64,000 nt of DNA from an uncultured Methylomirabilota bacterium (GTDB lineage Bacteria > Methylomirabilota > Methylomirabilia > Methylomirabilales > 2-02-FULL-66-22), in contig CAWJSJ010000001.1 in assembly GCA_963845565.1 (NCBI GenBank), positions 352,001-416,000 of the forward strand. Direction: 5' to 3'. Positions 15,113 through 27,742 of the stretch are shown piece after piece. The notes beneath the pieces are model-generated. The model saw only the letters and a list, made by a program, of their open reading frames with translations. It did no database searches and had not been told where the DNA came from. Both the position numbers and the translations under genes were made by a program. The stretch's first letter is position 1. Each line of letters begins with the position of its first letter.

Positions 15113-17194
15113 TTACGCGTTTTCCGGTTTGCGCAGCCCGTACGCTTTCATCTTGTTCTGGAGGGTGGCGCGGCTAACGCCGAGGGCCTTGGCCGCATGG
15201 GTCACGTTTCCGCCTGTCTTGGCCAGGGCGTCGAGAATGGTTTGCTTCTCGACCAGTTCGGTGGAGACTCGGGCCAGCCCCCGGAGGTCCTTCGGCCTCC
15301 TGGACGGAGCGTCCGCCTCGCCGCGGAGCTCGCGAGGCACGTCGTCGAGTCCCACGATGTCGCCCTTGGCCACGACCATCGTGCGCTGGACGACGTTCTC
15401 CAGTTCCCGCACGTTGCCGGGCCATTGATGGGCGATGAGGACGGACATGGCGTCCGGACTCGCACCCCGGATGGTTCTCCGCAGCTTCGGGTTGGCGGTC
15501 TCGATGAAGTGATTCACCAGCAACGGGATATCCTCGGCCCGTTCGCGCAAGGGCGGGACGCGGATCGGAAAGACGTTCACACGATAGAACAGGTCCTGCC
15601 TGAACCGGCCGGTCTTTACCAACTCCTCCACGTTCTGGTTCGTGGCCGAGAGGATACGGACGTTGACGCGAATCGTGTCGGTGCCCCCCACCCGCTGGAA
15701 CTCCCCATCCTGGAGCACGCGCAGGAGCTTGACCTGCGTGCTCGGCGAGATCTCGCCGATTTCGTCAAGGAACAGGGTCCCTCCGTCCGCCGTCTCGAAG
15801 ATACCTTTTCGCCTGGTATCCGCGCCGGTGAAGGCCCCTTTCTCGTGTCCGAACAGCTCGCTTTGCAGCAACGTCTCGGCCAGGGCCCCGCAGTTGACCG
15901 CCAGAAAGCGGCGGGATCGGCGCGGACTATTATAGTGGATGGCCCGCGCGATCAATTCCTTCCCCGTCCCGGTCTCGCCGTGGATCAGCACCGTCACATC
16001 CGTCTCGGCCAGGGAGCGGATCAGCGCGAAGAGTTCCTGCATGGGCTTGCTTTGGCCGACGATTCCCGAGAAGCTGAACTTGCGTTCGATCTCGCGCCGC
16101 AGGTCGATATTCTCCTGGACCAGCCGGCTGCGCTCGAGGTTGAACTCCACCAAACGAGTCTGGATGCGACGCGCCTGTCTGAGATGCTCGAACAGCAGCT
16201 CCGAGAACTGCCGCCGCAACTGCTCGGTCGACAGGGCGGCCTCGGGATGCGGCGTCTCGGTCCAGACGAACCGGAAGCGGGAGTAGGAGGCATCGTAAAT
16301 CTGATTCTCCTCGAAGGCGACGCTCTGCCCGCCGCGGCCGATGGTCCCGGGTCGGACGATACGATATGCGAGGGGGGCATGGGTCCGCTCCCCGGGATCC
16401 GCCGCGTCTCGATTCGTGAGCACGCGAATGGTGCCGCTCCGCGTCGCCTTCACCACGACGTCGGGGGTGTCCATGAGAATATCAGGCGGAAGGGGCACGG
16501 TCTCGGACGCCAGCGCAACATGGCGCGCCTCGACGACTGGCTGCCCTGTGCCCGCGGGATGGATCGCCAGGTGGTCGCCGCGGACGGTCACTCGGTACTC
16601 CGGGAACTCGCGGACGATATCCTCGATGCGGAGCTGCGAGACCTCCTCGATGCAGCGCAGGTCCTCGATGAAGGAATAGAGGCGCGGGAAACCCTCCGCC
16701 AGTCCGCGCACCAGGTGGATGGATCCCACGGCGGGCCGGACGTTTCCCGTGAACTGAGCCAGCATGTGCAGCGCCGATCTGGGGGCCGGCGTCTCGAACG
16801 ACTGGAGCCGAAGGTAGTTTGTGTGCACGGTGGCCCACAGGTGGGAAAACAATACGACCGATCGGACGTCGTTCAGGACGCGAAAGATGATCTCGTAGAC
16901 CGTCAGCAGTTCGTGTCGGCCGTGTTCGAAGTAGGCGCGGGCTGCCAGGTAGGGAACATCCTTGCGCCCGGTGATGTGCTCGCATTGGACGATCAATTCG
17001 CGGAGCACGGTCAGCGGAACCCAGTTGTTGCCATACCGCAGAAAGGTCTGGGGATCGGGGGGTGCGACGAAACCGTCGGTGCTACGAAACAAGGCGGCGT
17101 AGTCGATGGCTGCCTTGGCGGGATACTGTTCCTCGAGGTAGGTGAGAAGGAGGTCCGTCAGGAAACAGGTTACCCACGGCTGAGAGGTTTCCAC
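15113..17194 (-). CDS. Sigma-54-dependent enhancer-binding protein (Fis HTH) with ~330-aa unrecognised N-terminal sensor domain
   Basis: GETGTGKE, GAFTGA, LFLDEIG, WPGNVREL, NVTHAAKALGVSRATL. Confidence 0.92.
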   Translation of the reverse strand: METSQPWVTCFLTDLLLTYLEEQYPAKAAIDYAALFRSTDGFVAPPDPQTFLRYGNNWVPLTVLRELIVQCEHITGRKDVPYLAARAYFEHGRHELLTVYEIIFRVLNDVRSVVLFSHLWATVHTNYLRLQSFETPAPRSALHMLAQFTGNVRPAVGSIHLVRGLAEGFPRLYSFIEDLRCIEEVSQLRIEDIVREFPEYRVTVRGDHLAIHPAGTGQPVVEARHVALASETVPLPPDILMDTPDVVVKATRSGTIRVLTNRDAADPGERTHAPLAYRIVRPGTIGRGGQSVAFEENQIYDASYSRFRFVWTETPHPEAALSTEQLRRQFSELLFEHLRQARRIQTRLVEFNLERSRLVQENIDLRREIERKFSFSGIVGQSKPMQELFALIRSLAETDVTVLIHGETGTGKELIARAIHYNSPRRSRRFLAVNCGALAETLLQSELFGHEKGAFTGADTRRKGIFETADGGTLFLDEIGEISPSTQVKLLRVLQDGEFQRVGGTDTIRVNVRILSATNQNVEELVKTGRFRQDLFYRVNVFPIRVPPLRERAEDIPLLVNHFIETANPKLRRTIRGASPDAMSVLIAHQWPGNVRELENVVQRTMVVAKGDIVGLDDVPRELRGEADAPSRRPKDLRGLARVSTELVEKQTILDALAKTGGNVTHAAKALGVSRATLQNKMKAYGLRKPENA

Positions 17195-17373: not shown

Positions 17374-17859
17374 ATGCGAAGAGGCGGGCGAGGTGTTCGA
17401 GAGGTCGATCCACGGCGGCGGCTCTGGATTCAGAGCGTCATCGGTTTGGCCCTCGTGGCCGGGGTGGCGGCCATCTGGGCGGCGGTCCCGAGGGATGGTG
17501 CGGCCGGTGAGCCGGCGACGCATCGCGGCGGGCCGCGATTGGCTATAGATCAGGAGTTGATCGACTTCGGCGCCGTGCGCTACAACCAGTTCGTCGAGGC
17601 GCGCTTCCGTTTGAAGAACGTGGGGGATCAACCGCTCCGGTTGCCCGCGTCGCCGCCCATCGAGGTCGTTGAGGGCTGTTGACCGCCCAAGTCGGTCGTC
17701 GGTTCGACGACCCTGATGCCCGGCCAGGAAACCGAACTGTCGGCTCGTTTCACCATGCCGCCTGGGATGGGCGGGCCCCATCTTTTCGTGATCCGATTGC
17801 AAACCAACGACATCGTCCAGCCGGAACGAACGCTCCGAATCCGTTCCCTGTGGCAGTAG
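17374..17859 (+). CDS. Probable selenoprotein: TM-anchored DUF1573-like Ig-fold protein, Cys-Sec motif (EGC-U-PP), TGA at 17680-17682
   Basis: The frame continues 58 codons past TGA (PPKSVVGSTTLMPGQETELSARFTMPPGMGGPHLFVIRLQTND...) to TAG 17857-17859, completing the IDFG...FRLKNVGDQPL...L.PG....L...TND pattern. SECIS-like hairpin follows. Confidence 0.8.
17694..17712 (+). promoter_or_regulatory. Bacterial SECIS-like stem-loop
   Basis: GGTCGTCG-GTT-CGACGACC (8-bp stem) starts 11 nt after the UGA. Loop GU sits at positions 23-24 counting the U of UGA as 1, as in the E. coli fdhF SECIS. Confidence 0.75.
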
Positions 17860-17879
17860 GGCGCGTGCGGGGGAAGCCT

Positions 17880-18557
17880 GTGAGGTCATTTTCCTGGTGG
17901 GGTGCGGGATTGGTGACGTTCTGCGTCGGCGTGCTCGCCATTGGGGTGGCGGGCGCCTGGGCAGGGGAACGGAAGGAGGAGTGGACGCGAGACGATATTA
18001 TTGCCGCGCTCGAGCGCGGGCCCGGGCCCAGCATGGGGCCGGCGACGGCCCCGGTCGCGATGGTGTACTTCACGGATTTCCAATGCGGGTACTGCCGGAA
18101 GTTCGTGAAGGAGACGCTTCCCAAGCTCGAAGAGCAGTACATTCGGCCGGGAAAAGTCCGCCTCGCATACCGCCATCTCGCGATCCTTGGGGAGGCCTCC
18201 GTGCAAGCAGCGCGGGCCTCCTCCTGCGCGTTTGATCAGGGGAAGTTTTGGGAATACCACGATATCCTCTTTGCGAACCTGTCACCGCTTGCCTTCACCG
18301 CGGCCCGACTCAAGCGGTACGCTGCCGACCTCCGGTTGGACGAGAAGACGTTTGCTGCGTGTCTCGACAACCCGGCGTACGGCAAGCGGGTGGAAGCCGA
18401 AACGATGATCGGTCGGGCGCTAGGGGCGACGGGGACCCCGGCGTTTCTGCTCAACGGACAGCTCCTGCTCGGCGCGTATCCCTTTGAGGTCTTCCGGCAA
18501 GCCCTCGACAGCATGCTCGCCTCTCCGCCCCGCAAGACGCCCGGTCAGCCTCGCTAA
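17880..18557 (+). CDS. DsbA/DsbG-family thiol-disulfide oxidoreductase, exported
   Basis: Signal/TM segment; FTDFQCGYC; GTPAFLLNG. The real start is likely GTG 17880, not 17679. Confidence 0.85.
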   Translation: MRSFSWWGAGLVTFCVGVLAIGVAGAWAGERKEEWTRDDIIAALERGPGPSMGPATAPVAMVYFTDFQCGYCRKFVKETLPKLEEQYIRPGKVRLAYRHLAILGEASVQAARASSCAFDQGKFWEYHDILFANLSPLAFTAARLKRYAADLRLDEKTFAACLDNPAYGKRVEAETMIGRALGATGTPAFLLNGQLLLGAYPFEVFRQALDSMLASPPRKTPGQPR

Positions 18558-18715
18558 CAGAGCGCCGGTCGCCGGCGCGCAGGTTCGAGATCCCGGTCCA
18601 CCGCGCGCTTGCCCTTGTACCGCGCGGCAATCAGCGCTATAAGAATGGCACAGAGGTGTCTTGGCGGCTGCGTGTGGTCAGGTCCAGGCGGAATCGAGAG
18701 GGGCGGTAGAGCGCA

Positions 18716-19222
18716 ATGCACAATCCCCATCCAGAATCGGAACACCTGCGACGCATCTTCGAGGATACCCAGGTGCTGCGAAAACCGGTCACGGGCATCG
18801 TGACCGGATATCATGTCCTGCCATACGTCCTGGTGGCGCCGGATGAGGAGCAGGGCCAGCGGTCGGTGGAGATCCGGGGAAAGATTCGGGTCTCACCCCG
18901 TATGATCTTGACGCCGCGGCATCTGGGCCAGACGTACGAGCAACTCTTCGACGATCCGCAGCTCATGGATCGAACCCTCTTCGGGCGAGTCTTCAGCTTC
19001 CTGTACGCCGGTCGGCAAAACGTGCAGTTGGAGAGCGAAGAACTCCGGATCACGCGGGTCGACCGCGACCCGCGAGCGCAGATCGAACGAGCGCTGGATG
19101 AACTCATGCGGGGGGAGATCCTGGATACGGGCGTGATCCTGGGGCCGAACGTCAAGTTCTACCCCGTATCGATCGAGCGGTTCATCTCCGAGATCCTCGA
19201 TCGCGAGTTTCCACACGCCTGA
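18716..19222 (+). CDS. Conserved-looking hypothetical protein (168 aa)
   Basis: Clean ORF with typical codon usage; no family recognised. Confidence 0.7.
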   Translation: MHNPHPESEHLRRIFEDTQVLRKPVTGIVTGYHVLPYVLVAPDEEQGQRSVEIRGKIRVSPRMILTPRHLGQTYEQLFDDPQLMDRTLFGRVFSFLYAGRQNVQLESEELRITRVDRDPRAQIERALDELMRGEILDTGVILGPNVKFYPVSIERFISEILDREFPHA

Positions 19223-19606
19223 CGCCGACCTCGCCCGTGCGCTGGCTCGAGACGCGCAAGCTCCCGAAGGGGCGGCGGCGAAACCGGCGCCTGGATCGAG
19301 AGTTGCCAGGGAGGTCTTCGCGGAGCTGGGGCAGGAGGTGGCCGAAGCGGGGCCGGAAACAGAACTGCCGCAGGCGATCAGATTCGAGCCATGCAGCGTC
19401 TCCCCTTTGGTCGCCGACGCCGGTCCTCGCGACCCCACCTTCGGAGCCGGTTCCCACGTCTGAGTCTTGAATCCTCTGGGCGACCCGCCGGGAAGCCTCG
19501 CACTTCGTGGCGAGAGAGCTGCTCTGCTCTGATCCCTGCGGCTACTCATAAGGTAGGACGCGCCCGCCATTCCGTCAAGGGGTCGGCGAAAGAAAAGTCG
19601 TTTTCC

Positions 19607-20644
19607 ATGAGTGATAAATGGGTAGACCGCAAAGCGGCCGCCTGGCACGCCCTATGGGATCGATGCCCCGGTTTGGGGTGGCTCCGCACCTGGGGGGTGT
19701 CCGGTATCTCCATCTGCTCGGGGCTGGTCACCCTTCTCATTTTTCGCCGCGGAATAGAGTATTTTCCGTTGGTTATCGGCTATCTCCTCTTACTGTGGCT
19801 GGCGGGCGTGCTGTTGGCGGAGCACCGCCAGCGCCTGTCCGAACGGGCGCCGCGGGCGGTAACGACGGCCATCGACTATACGGTCCAGACCCTGCTGCAT
19901 GGCCTGCTGCTCTTTCTGTTGCCCATTTACTACGCCAGCACGACACTGACTTCCGGGAACGTCTGGTTTTTGCTCGTCCTGGTCGGTTCCAGCATCCTGA
20001 CAACCATCGACCCGTGGTATCGGACTGTGACCGAACAGGCTCGGTGGGTCGAGTCCGCGCTCTTTGGGCTCGGGTTGTTTTCCGCGCTGAATGTGGCTTT
20101 TCCTCTCGTCGGGGTGGCGAGCGGCACGGCGCTCCTCCTGAGCGGCTCCGCGAGCGTGCTGGCTCTCAGCCCCATCTTCCGCCGGGGCCTGGGTGCGGGG
20201 TGGGCGGCGGCGGCGCTGCGGGCCGGGTGCGGGGCGGTGGCCATCGCCATCGGTCTGTGGCTGGTGCGCGAGTGGATGCCGCCGGTTCCACTGCACCTGA
20301 CCCACTACACTTTTGCCAGGGCCGTGGACCAATTGGAGCCAGTGGAGCCCGCCGTCCGGATCGCTCGGGAGACACTGCAGGCCTGGGGGAAATTGTTCGC
20401 CTATACCGCGGTCGCGGCTCCTGCCGGACTTCGTGAGCCGGTGCACCACGCCTGGCAGAAGAACGGGCGGACCGTGGCGGTCATGCCTTCCACCACGGTG
20501 CAGGGTGGGCGACGGGGCGGGTTTCGGGTCTATTCCTGGAAGGCTGACCTCGGGGCCGACCCGGCGGGCGTGTGGCAGGTCGAGGTGCGCACGGCAGGTG
20601 GCCAACTCATCGGCCGGGCTCAGTTGCTGGTCACCGATCCATAG
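19607..20644 (+). CDS. Membrane protein with C-terminal DUF2914-like domain
   Basis: Multiple TM helices; C-terminal GGRRGGFRVYSWK...GVWQVEVRTAGGQLIGR. Confidence 0.65.
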   Translation: MSDKWVDRKAAAWHALWDRCPGLGWLRTWGVSGISICSGLVTLLIFRRGIEYFPLVIGYLLLLWLAGVLLAEHRQRLSERAPRAVTTAIDYTVQTLLHGLLLFLLPIYYASTTLTSGNVWFLLVLVGSSILTTIDPWYRTVTEQARWVESALFGLGLFSALNVAFPLVGVASGTALLLSGSASVLALSPIFRRGLGAGWAAAALRAGCGAVAIAIGLWLVREWMPPVPLHLTHYTFARAVDQLEPVEPAVRIARETLQAWGKLFAYTAVAAPAGLREPVHHAWQKNGRTVAVMPSTTVQGGRRGGFRVYSWKADLGADPAGVWQVEVRTAGGQLIGRAQLLVTDP

Positions 20645-22029
20645 TCGCCACCGGCGAAAGCGGACGGCGGGGGCGGGGCGGATCTGGTCTGCCTACGCGC
20701 CGCTCGGATCCACAGCGCGACCTGCGACGCGCTGGGGGGTCGCTCGGCGACGGCTGCCCGCCAGCGTGGAAGTAACAGCGGAGGGACGCACTGCGCCAGC
20801 TCTTCCACGGTGGCGATGTCCAGACGCCTGAGCGCATTGTAGTTCACGGCGCCGAGTCCCTGGAGATCCACCAGCGCGGCCGCGGCGCGCAGCGTCTGTA
20901 GCTCGCCCTCCGGGACCTGACTTTGGCGGGAGAGCCGCGTGATGCGCTCCGCCGTGTCGGTATGCCGGAGCAGCGCCGGCGGCGTCTTCACGCCGGATTG
21001 CCCCAGTCGCTCCACGACATCCCCGGGCACCCCCTCCATCGCCGCCAGCGTCGGCGCGACGCTCTTGACCGTCCATCGGTCGATGCCCGCATAGGTGAAG
21101 CCGTTGAACGCCAGCGCCAGCGCGATGGCGGGGACGGCGATGCCGAGCGGTGTGCCGCGACCGGCCGAGTCCGAGGTTTCCCAGTTTCGTCCCCGGCGGA
21201 TGACGTTCAGTAGATTGACGAGCACATAGGACGTGACCGCAAACGCCGGGAAACCGAGAAACCCGAGCGGGGGCATCTCGAACCACTTCAGGTCTTCGAG
21301 GTGGGGGACAGTGTAGAGCCACTTCGTGTAGGCCCAGAAGTTCCAGAACTCCCACAGTCCTCCGCAGACAAAACCCGCCAGCAACAACCGCAGCAAGGGC
21401 CGAGGGTCTCCACGCTCAAGCTGCCGGGCGAGCGAGACGGTCCGGGGGCTCGCCCAGTAACACAGCGGCTCCCCCAGGAAGATCGCGAAACCCCAAATCA
21501 GCGGGAAGGCGACCCTGGGCCAGACGAGTGGAGCGATGAGCATCCCGAGGCCGAGTATTACCGATCCGGCCAGGCCGACAGAGGCGATCCGCCGGGGGCG
21601 CATCTTGATCCCGTTGGCGACTCCGTACGCGTCCAGAAGTAGATAGGTTTCGAAAAGCGCCGGAAGGACGGTTGCGTATGAGATAAAGTTAAATAACAAG
21701 GCGAGGGGCTGGTCGGCAGGTGTATTGACGTAGAACCAGTTCTGGAGTCGAAAGTTCAGCAACTCGAACAGGTTCCATAGGGGGACGGACCAGAAGGCCA
21801 GAAACCAGAACTCCCACGGGCGGCTCCGCAAGAGCGATGCCCCGCACCGTCTCCACGCGCAGGCGTCGATGAGGAGGATGTACGACCACCAAGCGATGCC
21901 GTAAAAGAACATCGGGATCGGGGCGACGTCGAGGAAAAGGCCCGCCTTCCCGGCGAGGAGACTCGCCATCCCGACCCACCCATACCATGGGAGAGTGCGC
22001 TCGTCCGATCCGCGGGAACCGCCCGGCAC
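20620..22029 (-). CDS. Polytopic membrane protein with C-terminal DUF4332-like helix-hairpin-helix domain
   Basis: AAGGAGG RBS before GTG 22029. WNLFELLN..NWFY, GLWEFWNFWAYTKWLY, FEMPPLGFLGF; C-terminal EGV..G...L...GV and QGLG..L..L HhH-like repeats. Confidence 0.7.
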   Translation of the reverse strand: MPGGSRGSDERTLPWYGWVGMASLLAGKAGLFLDVAPIPMFFYGIAWWSYILLIDACAWRRCGASLLRSRPWEFWFLAFWSVPLWNLFELLNFRLQNWFYVNTPADQPLALLFNFISYATVLPALFETYLLLDAYGVANGIKMRPRRIASVGLAGSVILGLGMLIAPLVWPRVAFPLIWGFAIFLGEPLCYWASPRTVSLARQLERGDPRPLLRLLLAGFVCGGLWEFWNFWAYTKWLYTVPHLEDLKWFEMPPLGFLGFPAFAVTSYVLVNLLNVIRRGRNWETSDSAGRGTPLGIAVPAIALALAFNGFTYAGIDRWTVKSVAPTLAAMEGVPGDVVERLGQSGVKTPPALLRHTDTAERITRLSRQSQVPEGELQTLRAAAALVDLQGLGAVNYNALRRLDIATVEELAQCVPPLLLPRWRAAVAERPPSASQVALWIRAARRQTRSAPPPPSAFAGGDYGSVTSN

Positions 22030-22207
22030 GTTTTCCGCCCTCCTTTCGTGCCATTCTACCTCCGGTGCACGCGATGGCAAGTCTTTCCCCGTTGTGCCGC
22101 CGCTTGCCTTTACCGGATAGCTCGGGTATTCTTTGGCGGTCATGCATCCAAACGCCCGACCGACCGATCAAGCCTCTTGCGGCGTCTCCTCGACAACGAG
22201 ACGTGCC

Positions 22208-23830
22208 GTGCGGCGCATTCTTCTTGGCGGCCTCCTCGCCATTCTGTGGTCTGGTGTGGCTTGTGCCGGCGAGGACACGCAGCTCGAGGCGAGTATCCTC
22301 CGGGTCAAGCCGGCGGTGGTGCTGATCAGCAGCGAGGTGGGGGCCGAGGTGGCGATCAGTTGCGGGATTGGCCCCATTCACCAGGTGCGGCCCGACCCCC
22401 TCTACGAGACAGGGAGCGGCTTCATCCTGCATCCGGATGGTTTCATCGCGACCAACGGCCACGTCGTCGAGCGCTTTTATGAGATGAACGAGCAGCGACT
22501 CGCCAAGGAGTTCCTCGAAAAAGCCGCGGTGGACGCGTGCGGGCCGGCGCTGGCCATGGTGCCCGAGGGGGCGCGAAAGGAGCGGCTCCGCGCGATCGTG
22601 GACGACCCGGCGAACCGGGGCAAGGTCCGTTTGGTGAAGAAGCTCCACGTGCATCTGTCCACCGGAAAGATCTACGGCGCCGAGGTCAAGGCGTACAGTC
22701 CGGCCATCAAGCCGGAGGGGATCACGGCGGGCAAGAGCGCCTCGGAGGGCGGGAAGCCGGAGGCGGAGCGATCCGGAAAGGACATCGCCATCCTGAAGAT
22801 CGCCGAACGCGATCTGCCGACGCTGCGGCTCGCCCCGAGCAGCGGCATGCTGAAACTGGGCGAGCAGATCTTCGTGATCGGTTATCCGGGCGTGGTCTTG
22901 AATCACGATTTCCTCAGCCGGAAGTCGCAACTCGAGGCATCGGTGACGGTGGGGCGGGTGTCGGGTTTCAAGATCGACGTCAACGATCGCAAGGTGATCC
23001 AGACCGATGCCGCCATCACCTGGGGTAACAGCGGCGGGCCGGCCTTCAATTTCCAGGGGGACGTCATCGGCGTGGCCACGTTCATCTCCACCACCCTGGA
23101 GGGCGATCAGGCCGTGCAGGGGTTCAATTTCCTCGTTCCGGGGGACGCGGTGCGCGACTTCTGCGGCATGATCGGCCTGACGCCGACCTCGGATACCCGG
23201 TTTATGAAGGAATGGGAACAGGGGGTCGCCGCCTATTTCCGCGGCGAGTACCAGCGGAGCCTCGGACATCTGAATACCGCCGAGAAGATCATGCCTGGTT
23301 TTCCGGATATTCAACGGCTGCGCGCCTATGTGCAGATGCGCGTGGACAAGCGCCCCCGCTTCATGCAGCGCGGGAAGACCGTCGGCCTGGGGGTCGGCGC
23401 CGTCCTGGTGGGCGTCCTGGTGATCGTGGGCGTGCGACGATATGCCACCGCACGGGCGAACGGCGGTCCCGCGGTCGTTCAACGCATCGGCGCGGACGAG
23501 ATTCGCCGGCGTCTGGAGACGGGAACGGGCGTCGCCCTGGTGGATGCCCGGCACGGGGCGGCGTTCGACATGTCGCCGGTCCAGGCGGCAGGCGCGGTGC
23601 ACTTTGACATCGATCACCCAGACGTTGAGGCGCTCCGGGTGCACGTGAAACCCGACGGCGAGGTCGTCGCCTATTGCACCTGACCCGACGAGGCCACCAG
23701 CGCCCGTGTGGCGCTGCAGTTGATGCGGGCGGGTTTCCATCGGGTCTCGGTGGTGCGCGGTGGGCTCCCGGCGCTGATGGAAGAAGGGGTGACCGTGGCG
23801 CCAAAGGACACCCCGACGGCCGCCGTGTGA
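22208..23830 (+). CDS. Probable selenoprotein: signal peptide - trypsin-like serine protease - helical/TPR-like region - TM - rhodanese domain with C-T-U loop (TGA 23681-23683)
   Basis: Triad ATNGHVV / KDIAILK / GNSGGP. After YCT-TGA the frame continues PDEATSARVALQLMRAGFHRVSVVRGGLPAL..., completing the rhodanese fold, to TGA 23828-23830. Start uncertain (22142 or 22208). Confidence 0.85.
23698..23716 (+). promoter_or_regulatory. Bacterial SECIS-like stem-loop
   Basis: CAGCGCC-CGTGT-GGCGCTG: 7-bp stem 14 nt after the UGA, with G at loop position 2. Confidence 0.65.
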
Positions 23831-23861
23831 CTGCCGGCTGCCTGGAGGAATCTGACCAGAC

Positions 23862-25037
23862 ATGAGCGACAACGGTACCCTCGCGCGTCGACAAGCGGGA
23901 TCTCGGGCCGGGAAGGGCCGGTGGTGCGGTTCGCCGTGGGCCCGGTGGGTGTGCGCGGCCTGGCTGGCGAGCGCCGCTGTCGGTCTCATGGCCTGGGCAG
24001 CACCCGCGGCCGAGGGGCCGGCGCGGGGTGGAAGCGGCCTCACCCAGGAGGAAGAGACGGTCATCGGGATCTACCGGGCGGCGGGGCCGGGCGTCGTCCA
24101 CATCTCCAGCACGGTGCTGAACCAGGACTTCTTCTTCCGGATCGTACCGGAGCGGGGCACCGGTTCCGGGTTTGTGGTGGATGACACGGGGCTGATCTTG
24201 ACCAATAACCACGTGGTGGAGAACGCGGAGAGTGTGGAGGTCACGTTGGCCGACAAGAGCAAGGTTCCCGCCAAGCTCGTGGGCCGCGACCCGCACAACG
24301 ACGTGGCCGTCATCCGGATCAGCGCTCCGCGGGAGAAGCTGACCCCCCTGCGGCTTGGCGACTCCACGCAATTGCTCGTCGGGCAGATGGCCGTTGCCAT
24401 CGGGAATCCGTTCGGTCTGGATCGTACCCTCACGCGGGGCGTGGTGAGCGCCGTAGGGCGCAGCCTGAAGTCGGAGACCGGCCGGCAGATCCGGAACATG
24501 ATCCAGACCGACGCCGCCATCAATCAAGGGAACTCCGGGGGTCCCCTGCTGAATTCGCGTGGCGAGGTGATCGGCATCAACACCGCCATCTTCACGCCGA
24601 GCGGCGGCTCGGTCGGGATCGGGTTTGCCGTGCCCGTCAACACGGTGAAGAAGATTCTGCCCCAGCTCATCGCCCGCGGCCGGGCGAGTCATCCGTGGCT
24701 GGGGATCAGTGGGAATGACATCACCCCGACCATGGTCAAGGCGCTCTCGCTTCCCGTCAAGGAGGGCGTGATCATCGGCCAGGTCGCGCCCAACGGGCCG
24801 GCGGCGCGTGCGGGCTTGCGGGGATCGCAGCGGCGGGTCCGCGTGGGCAATTACATGGTCAACGTCGGGGGCGACATCATCCAGGCGTTGGACGGTGAGA
24901 AGATCACCACGATGGACGATGCCACCGCGTTTCTCGACGACCGGAAGCGGGTGGGGGATGACGTGACGGTCGAGGGGCTTCGCGACGGGAAGCCGTTTGC
25001 GGTCACCGTGCGACTGGGCGAACTGCCGGAGAACTGA
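23862..25037 (+). CDS. HtrA/DegS-like trypsin serine protease with PDZ domain
   Basis: GTGSGF, LTNNHVV, DVAVIR, QTDAAINQGNSGGPL, PWLGI, GPAARAGL, GDII. Confidence 0.92.
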   Translation: MSDNGTLARRQAGSRAGKGRWCGSPWARWVCAAWLASAAVGLMAWAAPAAEGPARGGSGLTQEEETVIGIYRAAGPGVVHISSTVLNQDFFFRIVPERGTGSGFVVDDTGLILTNNHVVENAESVEVTLADKSKVPAKLVGRDPHNDVAVIRISAPREKLTPLRLGDSTQLLVGQMAVAIGNPFGLDRTLTRGVVSAVGRSLKSETGRQIRNMIQTDAAINQGNSGGPLLNSRGEVIGINTAIFTPSGGSVGIGFAVPVNTVKKILPQLIARGRASHPWLGISGNDITPTMVKALSLPVKEGVIIGQVAPNGPAARAGLRGSQRRVRVGNYMVNVGGDIIQALDGEKITTMDDATAFLDDRKRVGDDVTVEGLRDGKPFAVTVRLGELPEN

Positions 25038-25507
25038 TGGCGACGCTGCGGCGGACACGCATGGTATTCGTCTGGACGGTGGCGCTCTGGTGCTTCCTGC
25101 TCGCGCCGGCCGTCGCGGTGGACGTGAATCCGCCGCTTCCCACCGGAACGATCGTGATCGGCGACCGCGTGACGGTGACCGTGGAGCTGGCTCGATCCGG
25201 CGACGAGAAGGTCCGGGGGTTGAGCGGACGGCCTGGCCTCAAACGCGGCACCGGGATGCTCTTCGTGTACGACCGGCCGCAGCCCATCGGCATCTGGATG
25301 AAGGACATGCGCTTCTCGCTGGACATCCTCTGGATCCGCGAGGGGTCGGTCGTTCACATCGAGCGGAACGCGCCGCCCCTGACCGCGGTCGGGCCGGAGC
25401 GTGTCTACACGGCGACGGGAGACATGGTGCTGGAGGTGCCCGCCGGTTTCACCGCAGACCGGAAGATCAAGGTAGGGGATTCCGTGAAGGCGGACATCCC
25501 GAAATGA
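25037..25507 (+). CDS. DUF192-family exported protein
   Basis: VELAR, RGLSGR, GMLFVY, WMKDMRFSLDILWI, VLEVPAG. Confidence 0.85.
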   Translation: MATLRRTRMVFVWTVALWCFLLAPAVAVDVNPPLPTGTIVIGDRVTVTVELARSGDEKVRGLSGRPGLKRGTGMLFVYDRPQPIGIWMKDMRFSLDILWIREGSVVHIERNAPPLTAVGPERVYTATGDMVLEVPAGFTADRKIKVGDSVKADIPK

Positions 25508-26151
25508 GAGCCGAGAGCCGAGAGCCGAGAGCCGAGAGCGGAGCGGGAACGGCCGCGAGCCGCGAGCCGCGAGCCGCGAGGGTGGGGACCGCGCGGGATC
25601 GGAATGGCCTGGCGGCGGGCGCTGTACTCGTGTTCCTATCGCTTGTCCTCTCCTGCCTTCCGGCCGCCGCTGCCAAGGCCGGCAGCGATCCGCTGCAGGC
25701 GCTTGGTCTTCAAGCGCCCAAGGAGGCGGTGGACGCGCCCGATTTTTCGCTGCCCGATCTATCCGGGAAGCAGATCCCACTGAAGCAGCTCAGGGGAAAG
25801 TTGGTGTTCCTGAATTTCTTCGCGACCTGGTGCGGGCCCTGCCGTGAAGAGATGCCCGGCATGGAGCGGCTTCACCGGGCTCACCAGGGCAACGGCCTGG
25901 TGGTGCTGTCCGTGAACGTCCAGGAAAGCGCAAAAACGATTCGTCCGTTCTTGCAGGCCCTCAAGCTGTCGTTCCCGACGGTCATGGATGCCGAGGGGGC
26001 GGTCAGCCGGGAGTATGGTGTCCGGGCGCTTCCGGTGAGTTTTCTCATCGGGCGCGACGGCAAGATCGTCTGGCGCGCGATCGGGGGGCGGGACTGGGAG
26101 AGCCCTCAGGCGCGACAATACTTCACGCAACTGGTGGCGGAGAAGCGATGA
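25504..26151 (+). CDS. TlpA/ResA-family periplasmic thioredoxin
   Basis: APDFSLPDL, LNFFATWCGPCREEMP, YGVRALPVSFLI. Start is ATG 25504 (ATGA overlap) or GTG 25582. Confidence 0.9.
   Translation: MRAESREPRAESGAGTAASREPRAARVGTARDRNGLAAGAVLVFLSLVLSCLPAAAAKAGSDPLQALGLQAPKEAVDAPDFSLPDLSGKQIPLKQLRGKLVFLNFFATWCGPCREEMPGMERLHRAHQGNGLVVLSVNVQESAKTIRPFLQALKLSFPTVMDAEGAVSREYGVRALPVSFLIGRDGKIVWRAIGGRDWESPQARQYFTQLVAEKR
25506..25580 (+). repeat. Two heptamer tandem repeats: (GAGAGCC)x~5 and (GCCGCGA)x4
   Basis: Directly visible at 25506-25539 and 25552-25579. Confidence 0.9.
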
Positions 26152-26208
26152 TCCCCCCTCCGCCGGGTCGGAATTCCGCCTGCCCGGTTCGGCAACGAAA
26201 GGACAGGG

Positions 26209-26967
26209 ATGCCTGGCGCTGAACTCAACGTCCTGCTGGCGATGGCGGCCGGACTGCTCTCCTTTCTCTCGCCCTGCGTGCTGCCGCTCTTGCCGTCATA
26301 CCTCTCCTTCATCGCGGGGCTCTCTTTCGAGGAGCTCCAGGGAACGGTGGCCAATCCGCGGACGCGCCGGGCGATTCTGGTCAACTCGCTCCTCTTCGTC
26401 CTGGGGTTCTCGATCGTCTTCATCGCCCTGGGTGCGGGCGCGACGCTGGTGGGGCAGGCCCTGTTCCAGTATCAAGTCCTGATCCGGCGGATCGGCGGCG
26501 GCTTCGTGGTCCTCATGGGGCTGTACGTGGCCGGGTGGCTTCGCATTCCATTCCTGATGCGGGAGTGGCGGGCGGAGCTGTCCAGTCGGCCGGCGGGTCG
26601 CCTCGGCGCGGTCGTGACCGGCATCACCTTCGCGGCCGGCTGGACCCCCTGCATCGGGCCGATCTTGGGATCGATTCTGACGCTGGCATCGGTGACCCAG
26701 ACCGCCTGGACGGGGATTCTGATGCTGGCGGCGTATTCGCTTGGGCTGGCGATCCCCTTCCTGCTCAGCTCGCTCATGATCGACCGCTTCCTGGTGTTCT
26801 TCGATCGCTTCAAGCGGTTCTTTCCGGTGGTGACCCGGGTGAGCGGAATCATCCTGATTGCGGTGGGGCTGCTCCTGCTGACGGACTACTTTGCGGTGTT
26901 GAGCCGGCTGGCGTTCTCCCTCACGCCAGACTGGCTGTTTGCCATCGAGCGGAGTCTGCTGCGGTAA
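26209..26967 (+). CDS. ccdA: CcdA-type membrane disulfide reductase
   Basis: AGLLSFLSPCVLPL and GWTPCIGPILG. Confidence 0.9.
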   Translation: MPGAELNVLLAMAAGLLSFLSPCVLPLLPSYLSFIAGLSFEELQGTVANPRTRRAILVNSLLFVLGFSIVFIALGAGATLVGQALFQYQVLIRRIGGGFVVLMGLYVAGWLRIPFLMREWRAELSSRPAGRLGAVVTGITFAAGWTPCIGPILGSILTLASVTQTAWTGILMLAAYSLGLAIPFLLSSLMIDRFLVFFDRFKRFFPVVTRVSGIILIAVGLLLLTDYFAVLSRLAFSLTPDWLFAIERSLLR

Positions 26968-27079
26968 GAACCGGTCTCCGTGTTTCGCGGGGGTGAGCCC
27001 GTCCGGCCTGCGCCTGGGTTGAGACGCCGCCGTGGGGTTGGCCGGTCCTGTCGGAGGTCGAGGTCGGGAGGTGTGACGG

Positions 27080-27742
27080 GTGGCCAAGAAGAAGCCCCAG
27101 CGGAGGGACGATCCGCCGGAACCGGCAGCCGAACGCCCGCGGGTTTCCGGCATCCTGGCGGGCCGGCCGACGACGGCGGGGGTGATCTGGCTGGTAGTGA
27201 TTCTCTTGGTCATCGGTATCTCCGCCGGCTACCTGGTGTCGCGGTTTGCGGGATCGAGCGGCCCGACCGCCGGCACGGCGACACCAGACCCGACGTTTCC
27301 CTGGCGGGCGCGTCTGCTGCAGGATCCCAAGGACGTGGAGGCGCTGCTGGCTCTGGCCCACGTCGAGCTCGACCGCCAACAGGTGGACGAGGCGGAAACA
27401 CTCTATCGGCAGGTGCTGTCGCTCCAGCCGAAGAACGTGGAGGCGATCACGCACCTCGGGACGGTGATGCTGGTGCGCGGCCAGACGGGCGCGGCGCTCC
27501 GGCAGTACAACCAGGCGCTGGCGATTCAACCCGACTACCTCCACGCCCTCTGGGACAAAGGCAGCCTGCAGCAACAGGTGCTGCAAGACTACCCGGCAGC
27601 GATCAAAACCTGGGAAGTCTTCCTGCGGACGGCGGGCCCGGAGAGTCCGGACGGCAAGACGGCGCAGCAATTCATCGCCGAGGCCCGGGAGGCGATGAAG
27701 AAGGCGTCCCCGGTGGATAAGGCGTTCGGCGGGACATCCTAG
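27080..27742 (+). CDS. Membrane-anchored TPR protein
   Basis: N-terminal TM helix followed by TPR-like repeats (DPKDVEAL, QPKNVEAI, QPDYLHAL). Confidence 0.8.
   Translation: MAKKKPQRRDDPPEPAAERPRVSGILAGRPTTAGVIWLVVILLVIGISAGYLVSRFAGSSGPTAGTATPDPTFPWRARLLQDPKDVEALLALAHVELDRQQVDEAETLYRQVLSLQPKNVEAITHLGTVMLVRGQTGAALRQYNQALAIQPDYLHALWDKGSLQQQVLQDYPAAIKTWEVFLRTAGPESPDGKTAQQFIAEAREAMKKASPVDKAFGGTS

Follow-up and report, generated by a model that had tools for sequence, protein, structure and literature searches.

Two likely selenoproteins in a probably mosaic envelope gene neighbourhood of a Methylomirabilota bacterium

Do selenoprotein genes that lie among genes for envelope redox proteins and proteases form one system with them, or are they separate additions to an ordinary gene cluster? 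The question is raised by positions 17374-27742 of a 64,000-nucleotide stretch of DNA (the window; assembly GCA_963845565.1, contig CAWJSJ010000001.1, positions 352,001 to 416,000) from an uncultured Methylomirabilota bacterium. An earlier note on this DNA had proposed that a CcdA-TlpA pair encoded here reduces an exported Cys-selenocysteine protein or protease clients rather than apocytochromes, within one selenium-based system of extracytoplasmic redox and quality control. The explanation that we regard as probable is that the region is a mosaic, in which an ordinary envelope cluster (HtrA, DUF192, TlpA, CcdA, and TPR proteins) is accompanied by two optional and unrelated likely selenoproteins: an immunoglobulin-like (Ig) protein with a predicted copper-binding role outside the membrane, and an HtrA-like protease whose selenocysteine-containing tail is predicted to be cytoplasmic.

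The two probable selenoproteins of the earlier note stood up, both in-frame UGAs being conserved and aligned to Cys in homologues. Both TGAs very likely encode selenocysteine (Sec; U in motifs) because they are conserved and alternate with Cys codons, and because one of them has a covarying Sec insertion sequence (SECIS). The features of the two genes are listed by position in the window.

17374..17859, plus strand: likely selenoprotein 1, a DUF1573/ASH (HYDIN) Ig protein of 161 residues (Pfam profile)
17680..17682, plus strand: Sec103, in-frame TGA of the Ig gene, in G-C-U-P-P
17695..17711, plus strand: SECIS hairpin of the Ig gene, GTCGTC-GGTTC-GACGAC (stem conservation, covariation)
22208..23830, plus strand: likely selenoprotein 2, 540 residues, with signal peptide, HtrA-like protease, helical domain, transmembrane (TM) helix, and rhodanese
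23378..23434, plus strand: predicted membrane helix of the protease gene, residues 391-409 (hydropathy; model helix 384-418, with pLDDT, the predicted local distance difference test score, partly low)
23681..23683, plus strand: Sec492, in-frame TGA of the protease gene, in Y-C-T-U-P
23698..23716, plus strand: SECIS-like hairpin 3′ of Sec492, with weaker evidence (partly codon-dictated)

At the position of Sec103, every one of 13 Ig orthologues from relatives has a TGA codon. In a wider set of Ig loci, the best 80 of 259 GTDB stretches, this codon is TGA in 58 and TGC or TGT in 15, and seven loci were unparsed. Among 86 database homologues, 61 stop at G-C, 24 have C-C, and one has C-W, and a tree of 73 rows forces at least four switches between Sec and Cys. 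The hairpin lies directly 3′ of the UGA, as a SECIS element should. All 6 bp of its stem are preserved in 49 of 50 distinct TGA genes, compared to 4 of 15 Cys genes. Two-sided changes are found in four of the six stem pairs, exceeding all slid controls; the corresponding shuffle test is inflated by relatedness. The TGA of the Ig gene very likely encodes Sec.

The same holds, very likely, for the TGA of the protease gene. Of the best 120 of 539 database homologues of the protease, 86 end at Y-C-x, 11 have Y-C-x-C, and 23 have another tail or none. The genus loci carry TGA at this position, with TGT or TGC in two (L038 and L043) and Ser in paralogues. The hairpin is conserved, yet it is also present in the Cys form of L038 and is tied to the codons. 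Gene callers stop at the UGA in the 86 protease and 61 Ig homologues counted above, and this truncation hides the rhodanese of a widespread protease family and half of the Ig domain of a copper-operon protein.

That the two TGAs are true stops or damage, leaving truncated or dead genes in the source genome (G000; 5.36 Mb, 98.7% complete), is very improbable. The codons are conserved across phyla and exchanged only with Cys, Ser or, in one row, Trp, with the forced Sec/Cys changes mentioned above; the covarying SECIS is lost in Cys genes; and the genome encodes tRNA-Sec, SelA, and a SelD that itself bears Sec, along with about 20 further Sec genes. What speaks for true stops is that an Rfam scan of the window gave no match, that single-sequence z-scores of the hairpins are modest, and that selB (C4:5490-7400, L221) is broken by three frameshifts in the assembly. 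This gene is intact in relatives G009, G003, and G011, and that of the nearest relative is whole. An M16 peptidase gene at C2:1694538 is likewise split in this genome; such split genes point to indel errors, which suggests that the selB frameshifts are an assembly error. Contigs assembled from DNA reads do not strictly confirm the TGAs. Contigs from RNA runs cover scattered pieces, one of them over 23634-23799, and cannot show transcription or co-transcription.

A spacing of 6 kb, as seen for the Ig and protease genes, could arise by chance in this genome. Scanning with a coding model yielded 293 candidates for read-through in addition to a motif list, and 45 were selected for Pfam searches. 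In 17 of these a redox domain spans or begins at the TGA, and three further candidates fit known motifs (SelD, GrdB-like, and methyltransferase), so that there are at least 22 Sec genes counting the Ig and protease genes, with three spanning matches (HhH, AbgT, and prismane) left out of the count. Deng et al. 2026, as cited in PMC13188914, reportedly describe a Methylomirabilota metagenome-assembled genome with 63 predicted selenoproteins. With 20 independent Sec loci, chance alone would give 0.43 pairs at 6 kb or less (P ~0.35). A coincidental linkage, which the earlier note had allowed for, is compatible with this figure for the pair itself; within the genus the synteny described below is real. 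Two pairs of truly adjacent Sec genes occur elsewhere in the genome (L058, L068): a peroxiredoxin-like gene at C2:112892 with a Sec TlpA (W-U-P-V-C) at C2:113446, and two Sulf_transp (YeeE/YedE-type) genes with Sec in each, at C2:2494387 and C2:2494809.

Whether the region works as a unit can be judged from its layout and from its distribution among relatives. The remaining genes are as follows.

17880..18557, plus strand: DsbA/DsbG-like thioredoxin-fold protein with CGYC, Thioredoxin_4 (NF041057, 147 bits; cut-off 190)
18716..19222, plus strand: conserved 168-residue protein without Pfam or NCBIfam match
19610..20644, plus strand: DUF5924/DUF2914 membrane protein, start inferred
20620..22143, minus strand: DUF4332 membrane protein, on the opposite strand and dividing the region
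23862..25037, plus strand: HtrA/DegS-type protease with a single PDZ domain
25037..25507, plus strand: DUF192 protein
25507..26151, plus strand: TlpA/ResA-type thioredoxin, membrane-anchored, WCGPC (Cys in every orthologue examined)
26209..26967, plus strand: CcdA (DsbD_TM), the sole PF02683 match in the genome
27080..27742, plus strand: single-pass TPR membrane protein without Cys (TPR_CcmH_CycH match weak, below cut-off)

All genes that the earlier note had listed were found in their places, its tight or overlapping spacing at 22208-26151 is borne out by gaps of 31, -1, and -1 nt, and no cytochrome c or heme lyase gene was matched among the 18 proteins scanned. Nevertheless, the ~10 kb is not a single transcription unit, because it is divided by the DUF4332 gene on the minus strand and by two gaps, of 158 and 387 nt; these set the Ig-dsbA pair apart from the run at 22208-27742. 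A scan of the window for promoters and terminators gave one promoter-like site against 1.3 expected and is thus uninformative. The 168-residue protein shares 74-96% identity across the genus and is usually encoded 3′ of the DsbA-like gene. A divergent gene at 15113-17194 encodes a sigma-54 activator whose N-terminal region is long and carries no annotation; this gene stands beside the Ig and dsbA genes in G004, G005, and G009.

Close homologues of the proteins carry the labels Candidatus Methylomirabilis, Methylomirabilales, or NC10, which suggests that order for the source genome. Among 15 ccdA loci of the genus, tlpA adjoins in 12, the TPR gene in 13, and htrA-DUF192 lies upstream in 12. Many genus loci insert a second DegP and a pair of M16 peptidases, and a genome of another family (G039) has the order htrA-DUF192-M16-M16-ccdA. 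Of the 16 relatives that are informative, 10 have the Sec protease in the slot 5′ of htrA, and in the other six it is missing there. Some of these data weigh against a mosaic: the linkage within the genus is real, with the protease preceding htrA in those 10 relatives and the Ig gene preceding dsbA in five, and the whole arrangement is found on one contig in G009 and probably, on split contigs, in G001, G003, and G011. Together with the tight spacing, the exported Cys-Sec pair of the Ig protein, and the absence of ccm or ccs genes near ccdA in 40 loci, they are what favours a single dedicated Sec-based system of CcdA-TlpA, DsbA, HtrA, and both selenoproteins.

We nonetheless consider such a system improbable, since it is largely refuted by distribution. 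Three SelA-positive, near-complete genomes, namely G014 (98%, on one contig), G020 (98%), and G012 (95%), keep the cluster and have no match to either Sec gene. Over 21 genus genomes, both Sec genes occur in eight, only one of them in five and in four, respectively, and neither in four, so that they are uncorrelated (Fisher p=0.67), in a test limited by incomplete genomes and kinship. Outside the genus each Sec gene has its own neighbourhood. In a sister family labelled f9, probably the Rokubacteriales, the parts are scattered: tlpA adjoins ccdA in 19 of 20 ccdA loci, in which no HtrA, Sec gene, or ccm/ccs match was found, and within ~5 kb of 20 protease loci there is no tlpA, ccdA, dsbA, DUF192, TPR, or Ig gene. 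The check by synteny and profiling thus upholds linkage within the genus and separates the Sec protease from tlpA-ccdA in f9 (0/20 loci each way). Moreover, the Sec of the protease is predicted to be cytoplasmic, the chance of such a pair of Sec genes is ~35%, and the TlpA and DsbA of the cluster are Cys forms while Sec-bearing TlpA-like genes lie elsewhere in the genome (C2:113446 and C4:236797). No Sec was found in the cluster TlpA or DsbA; the DsbA-like protein has Cys in all 12 genus-level rows, and one Sec homologue was met in a Chloroflexi locus. What remains of the proteostasis proposed for the neighbourhood is its protease character, which is real in view of the second DegP and the M16 pair in relatives, and the conservation of 22208-27742 in the genus, but not a joint Sec system.

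The mosaic explanation leaves the role of the CcdA-TlpA pair to be addressed. Since the f9 and genus loci lack ccm/ccs genes and the f9 loci lack Sec genes, tlpA-ccdA is a free-standing pair across the class, tied to neither cytochrome maturation nor selenoprotein genes. A consistent link to ccm or ccs genes, which could have spoken against the earlier note, was seen in none of the 40 loci, and no System II ccdA-resA-resBC locus was encountered there. In most f9 loci (L199-L217), tlpA-ccdA is followed by a homoserine kinase gene and a Pup gene. CcdA passes electrons from thioredoxin to outer thioredoxins (PMC9145763 and PMC6669012), and TlpA of Bradyrhizobium reduces ScoI and CoxB, that is, the Sco and CuA cysteines, before metalation (same sources).

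The CcdA of the source genome is its only PF02683 match, and no second DsbD-type carrier (PF13386) was matched in this 98.7% complete genome. A System I operon, ccmA-B-C-E-F-G-H, lies far away at C2:2661040-2667318 with its own CcmG and without ccdA or dsbD, and 51 open reading frames of the genome carry CxxCH in a coding-like context. Because it is the only DsbD-type carrier and the ccm operon has none, CcdA probably also serves this distant operon, and a client role "rather than apocytochromes" is unlikely. Electrons would pass from cytoplasmic thioredoxin through CcdA to the adjacent TlpA and probably also to CcmG; the chemistry is established for CcdA, and the clients are putative. We infer that CcdA is a general periplasmic reductant. 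The exported Cys-Sec Ig protein is a plausible client of TlpA, and the rhodanese Sec of the protease, being predicted cytoplasmic, would not be one. The CcmG-like thioredoxin at C2:2665854-2666360 has W-C-Y-P-A-C, a C-x3-C rather than a C-x2-C motif.

The function of the Ig protein is suggested by its invariant residues and its neighbours in other genomes. Its model (pLDDT 87.5) shows a membrane helix at residues 13-37 carrying a beta sandwich, the PF07610 match reaches 27.7 bits against a cut-off of 26.1, and the best folds are ASH/PapD-like (2qsv: Z 12.9, root-mean-square deviation 2.7, 105 aligned). C102, U103, M128, M132, and H136 are invariant across 29 Ig sequences, and, judging by strand order, C102/U103 probably cluster with M128/M132/H136 at one pole. 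Such a soft-ligand set of Cys, Sec, Met, and His is typical of Cu(I) sites. In 52 of the 80 Ig loci, a cupredoxin/CoxII-cytochrome c, a P1B ATPase, or a multicopper oxidase lies within ~6 kb, compared to 2.9% of random windows of the source genome, although the copper hidden Markov models derive from these very loci, related loci do not count as independent, and the genome used as control belongs to another phylum. A CuA motif lies near the Ig gene in 41 of the 80 loci and a PCYCGC gene in 53. Five genus relatives have the Ig gene elsewhere, near DUF302, SHOCT, DUF2933, PCYCGC, cupredoxin, CopA, or an RND pump. On the basis of the invariant ligands and the copper protein neighbourhood, the Ig protein is likely to be a copper chaperone. 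It would hold Cu(I) by Cys102, Sec103, Met128, Met132, and His136 and pass the metal on to exported cuproproteins, CuA domains for example, and the home of its gene would be the copper operon, from which it has here been moved beside a DsbA-like gene. Resting on the neighbourhood for its copper context, this step of copper holding and delivery appears fairly probable.

Further observations temper this assignment. The fold search returned ASH/PapD-like domains only and no copper-chaperone fold, which excludes nothing, and the source genome has no PCYCGC, Fer4_5, or multicopper oxidase match. Without the rest of the copper operon, the copper role in this genome is borrowed from homologues. The ESM Atlas gave DUF1573 clusters only, with no function, and a profile search of representatives with the Ig protein is dominated by long Ig-repeat proteins. 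Neither a Pfam hit nor a motif for Sco or PCuAC features (CX3C thioredoxin fold, H(M)X10MX21HXM) was found in the Ig protein, which may act like a Sco/PCuAC chaperone without being one. A complex model of the Ig protein with PCYCGC, built for a Chloroflexota Cys-form pair, scored 0.34 against 0.13 for the best control; at least 91% of the contacts are shared between runs, and the partner has pLDDT of at least 90. Of 157 solved pairs 116 reach the mark applied, as do 2 of 215 mismatched ones; with scores up to 0.60, only 18 of the 157 solved pairs and both mismatches do so, so that low passes are more often wrong than right; the model gives weak support to a complex. In eight of the 49 loci that could be parsed, the PCYCGC gene is itself a Sec gene (G-U-x-x-C), for example at L120:5013-5465, and therefore some copper operons hold two selenoproteins.

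A mosaic is compatible with the narrower possibility, which we treat as tentative, that the Ig protein owes the reduced state of its Cys-Sec pair, and thereby its copper loading, to CcdA-TlpA or to the DsbA-like protein, much as TlpA prepares ScoI and CoxB for metalation (PMC6669012 and PMC9145763). The dsbA gene begins 20 nt 3′ of the Ig gene here and the two are kept together in five relatives, and in G005 and G006 the Ig gene has a TlpA-like gene at a distance of 1-2 kb. Thiol-redox partners recur near the Ig gene on a wider scale, which speaks against the mosaic explanation: ccdA is found in 7 of the 80 Ig loci and tlpA in 9, and a Chloroflexi locus (L106:822-5956) has a run of Sec-DsbA, VKOR, a PCYCGC-like gene, the Sec Ig gene, and a P1B ATPase. 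However, six of the seven ccdA loci are one near-identical clade, amounting to about two independent events, 71 of the 80 loci have no tlpA nearby, and in the window tlpA lies 7.6 kb away from the Ig gene, with a gene on the minus strand in between.

The second likely selenoprotein is of a different kind. Its triad H85/D192/S275 and the exported C52 and C111 are invariant in 25 rows, and its best folds are HtrA1 and DegP. A PDZ domain is not among its Pfam hits; a helical domain, the TM helix, and a rhodanese take its place, and the active-site loop of the rhodanese is C490-x-U492. The source genome holds five members of this family with differing tails, the paralogues being tail-less, ending in a rhodanese with Ser for Sec, or ending in rhodanese and PilZ; an example is a paralogue of the order protease-TM-rhodanese(Ser)-PilZ at C2:139642-141700 (also in L053). 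PilZ is a cytoplasmic domain. Because the N-terminus is exported by a signal peptide, the Sec follows the TM helix, and a paralogue has PilZ, the rhodanese with Sec492 is likely to be cytoplasmic, and this predicted location puts the Sec beyond the reach of TlpA. The positive charges flanking the helix, six before and three after, are opposite to the topology proposed and count against it.

The interchangeable tails suggest that the rhodanese is an input domain. The protease would cut periplasmic substrates, and the cytoplasmic C-x-U rhodanese, when persulfidated or oxidised, would tune it across the membrane; this regulatory step, proposed from the architecture, is tentative. A plain membrane-tethered sulfur or selenium transferase that does not regulate the fused protease is a somewhat doubtful alternative. 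The domain is mobile, as the Y-C-x-U-P motif also occurs on DedA/VTT proteins (L046 and L050) and on a free rhodanese (C4:52437), whereas members of two orders retain the fusion, and the Ser-for-Sec and PilZ-extended paralogues keep the domain, as a regulatory module would. The DedA/VTT membrane proteins fused to C-x-U rhodanese are at L046:2238-3212 and L050:5341-6291, the former directly 3′ of a Sec protease. The protease profile, which includes tail-less paralogues, matches 130 of 201 genomes of the phylum and 119 of 126 in f9. Twenty f9 protease loci were chosen, 17 flagged with TGA and three without; the codon at C-x-U is TGA in 14, Ser in two, and unparsed in four. The neighbours there are an M16 pair in 13 of 20 and a rhomboid gene in 10 of 20.

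Collectively, the neighbourhood as a system is ordinary and a tempting false lead is removed, and the Ig and protease genes very likely encode two selenoprotein variants that are uncatalogued in the sources compared and have separate functions. It is rather unlikely that all the functional steps hold jointly, with a cytoplasmic Cys-x-Sec rhodanese that senses sulfane sulfur or oxidants and switches an HtrA-like protease in most Rokubacteria-like genomes, and an Ig chaperone for CuA assembly in which Sec binds Cu(I) directly and which CcdA-TlpA keeps reduced. If true, the copper chaperone would be selenium-ligated and the envelope protease gated by Sec. In NCBIfam (June 2026), neither Sec protein reaches the cut-off of any model; one out-of-frame reference, L152, was left aside. 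The catalogue in PMC13188914 includes a rhodanese with CxU and a DUF1573 selenoprotein with U-G-C; the C-U DUF1573 form and the protease-rhodanese fusion are absent from the portions of it that were compared, as they are from those of PMC13326102 and PMC1976440. No description of either form was found in the literature listings searched, with Haft and Tolstoy 2025 and Deng et al. 2026 outside the comparison; these or their supplements may list either.

The nearest known relative of the Ig protein is the DUF1573 selenoprotein OS_HP2 (PF07610, NF041425; Table 1 of PMC13188914 and the supplement of PMC12013277), with which it shares the Pfam domain, export, and a Sec loop before a P-G motif. It differs in having C-U instead of U-G-C, in reaching 18-38 bits against the NF041425 cut-off of 100, in being one domain on a membrane anchor where the OS_HP2 proteins are longer, and in its invariant M-x3-M-x-G-x-H and copper-operon context. 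The rhodanese of the protease has C-x-U at the active-site loop in common with rhodanese form 3 (NF041203 rhodanese_LYCAU; PMC13188914 Table 1), its best rhodanese match (61 bits, E 8e-17). The scores of 61-69 bits are under the cut-off of 115, and the fusion behind an exported HtrA-like protease and a TM helix has no entry in the part of that table covered. The "Trypsin-like serine protease" selenoprotein in file 3 of the PMC12013277 supplement is likewise a trypsin-fold protease with Sec, which lies inside the protease domain there (G-Y-G-U-A) and in a separate domain across the membrane here. TsoB, a rhodanese/DsbD fusion selenoprotein (NF045694, listed in PMC13188914), is a precedent for joining Sec to a rhodanese and a DsbD-type domain. 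Here its model is matched by the CcdA domain alone (48 bits, cut-off 805), and there is no fusion, another Sec motif, and no conserved linkage. With regard to copper, the source genome has two Sco matches and no PCuAC match. Compared to Bradyrhizobium TlpA-ScoI-PcuC-CoxB (PMC6669012) and Bacillus CcdA-ResA/StoA (PMC9145763), the Ig protein lacks a Sco or PCuAC fold or motif and tlpA-ccdA is unlinked to ccm, ccs, and cox genes, while the likeness lies in a CcdA that feeds an anchored thioredoxin and in Cys/Met/His chaperones for CuA.

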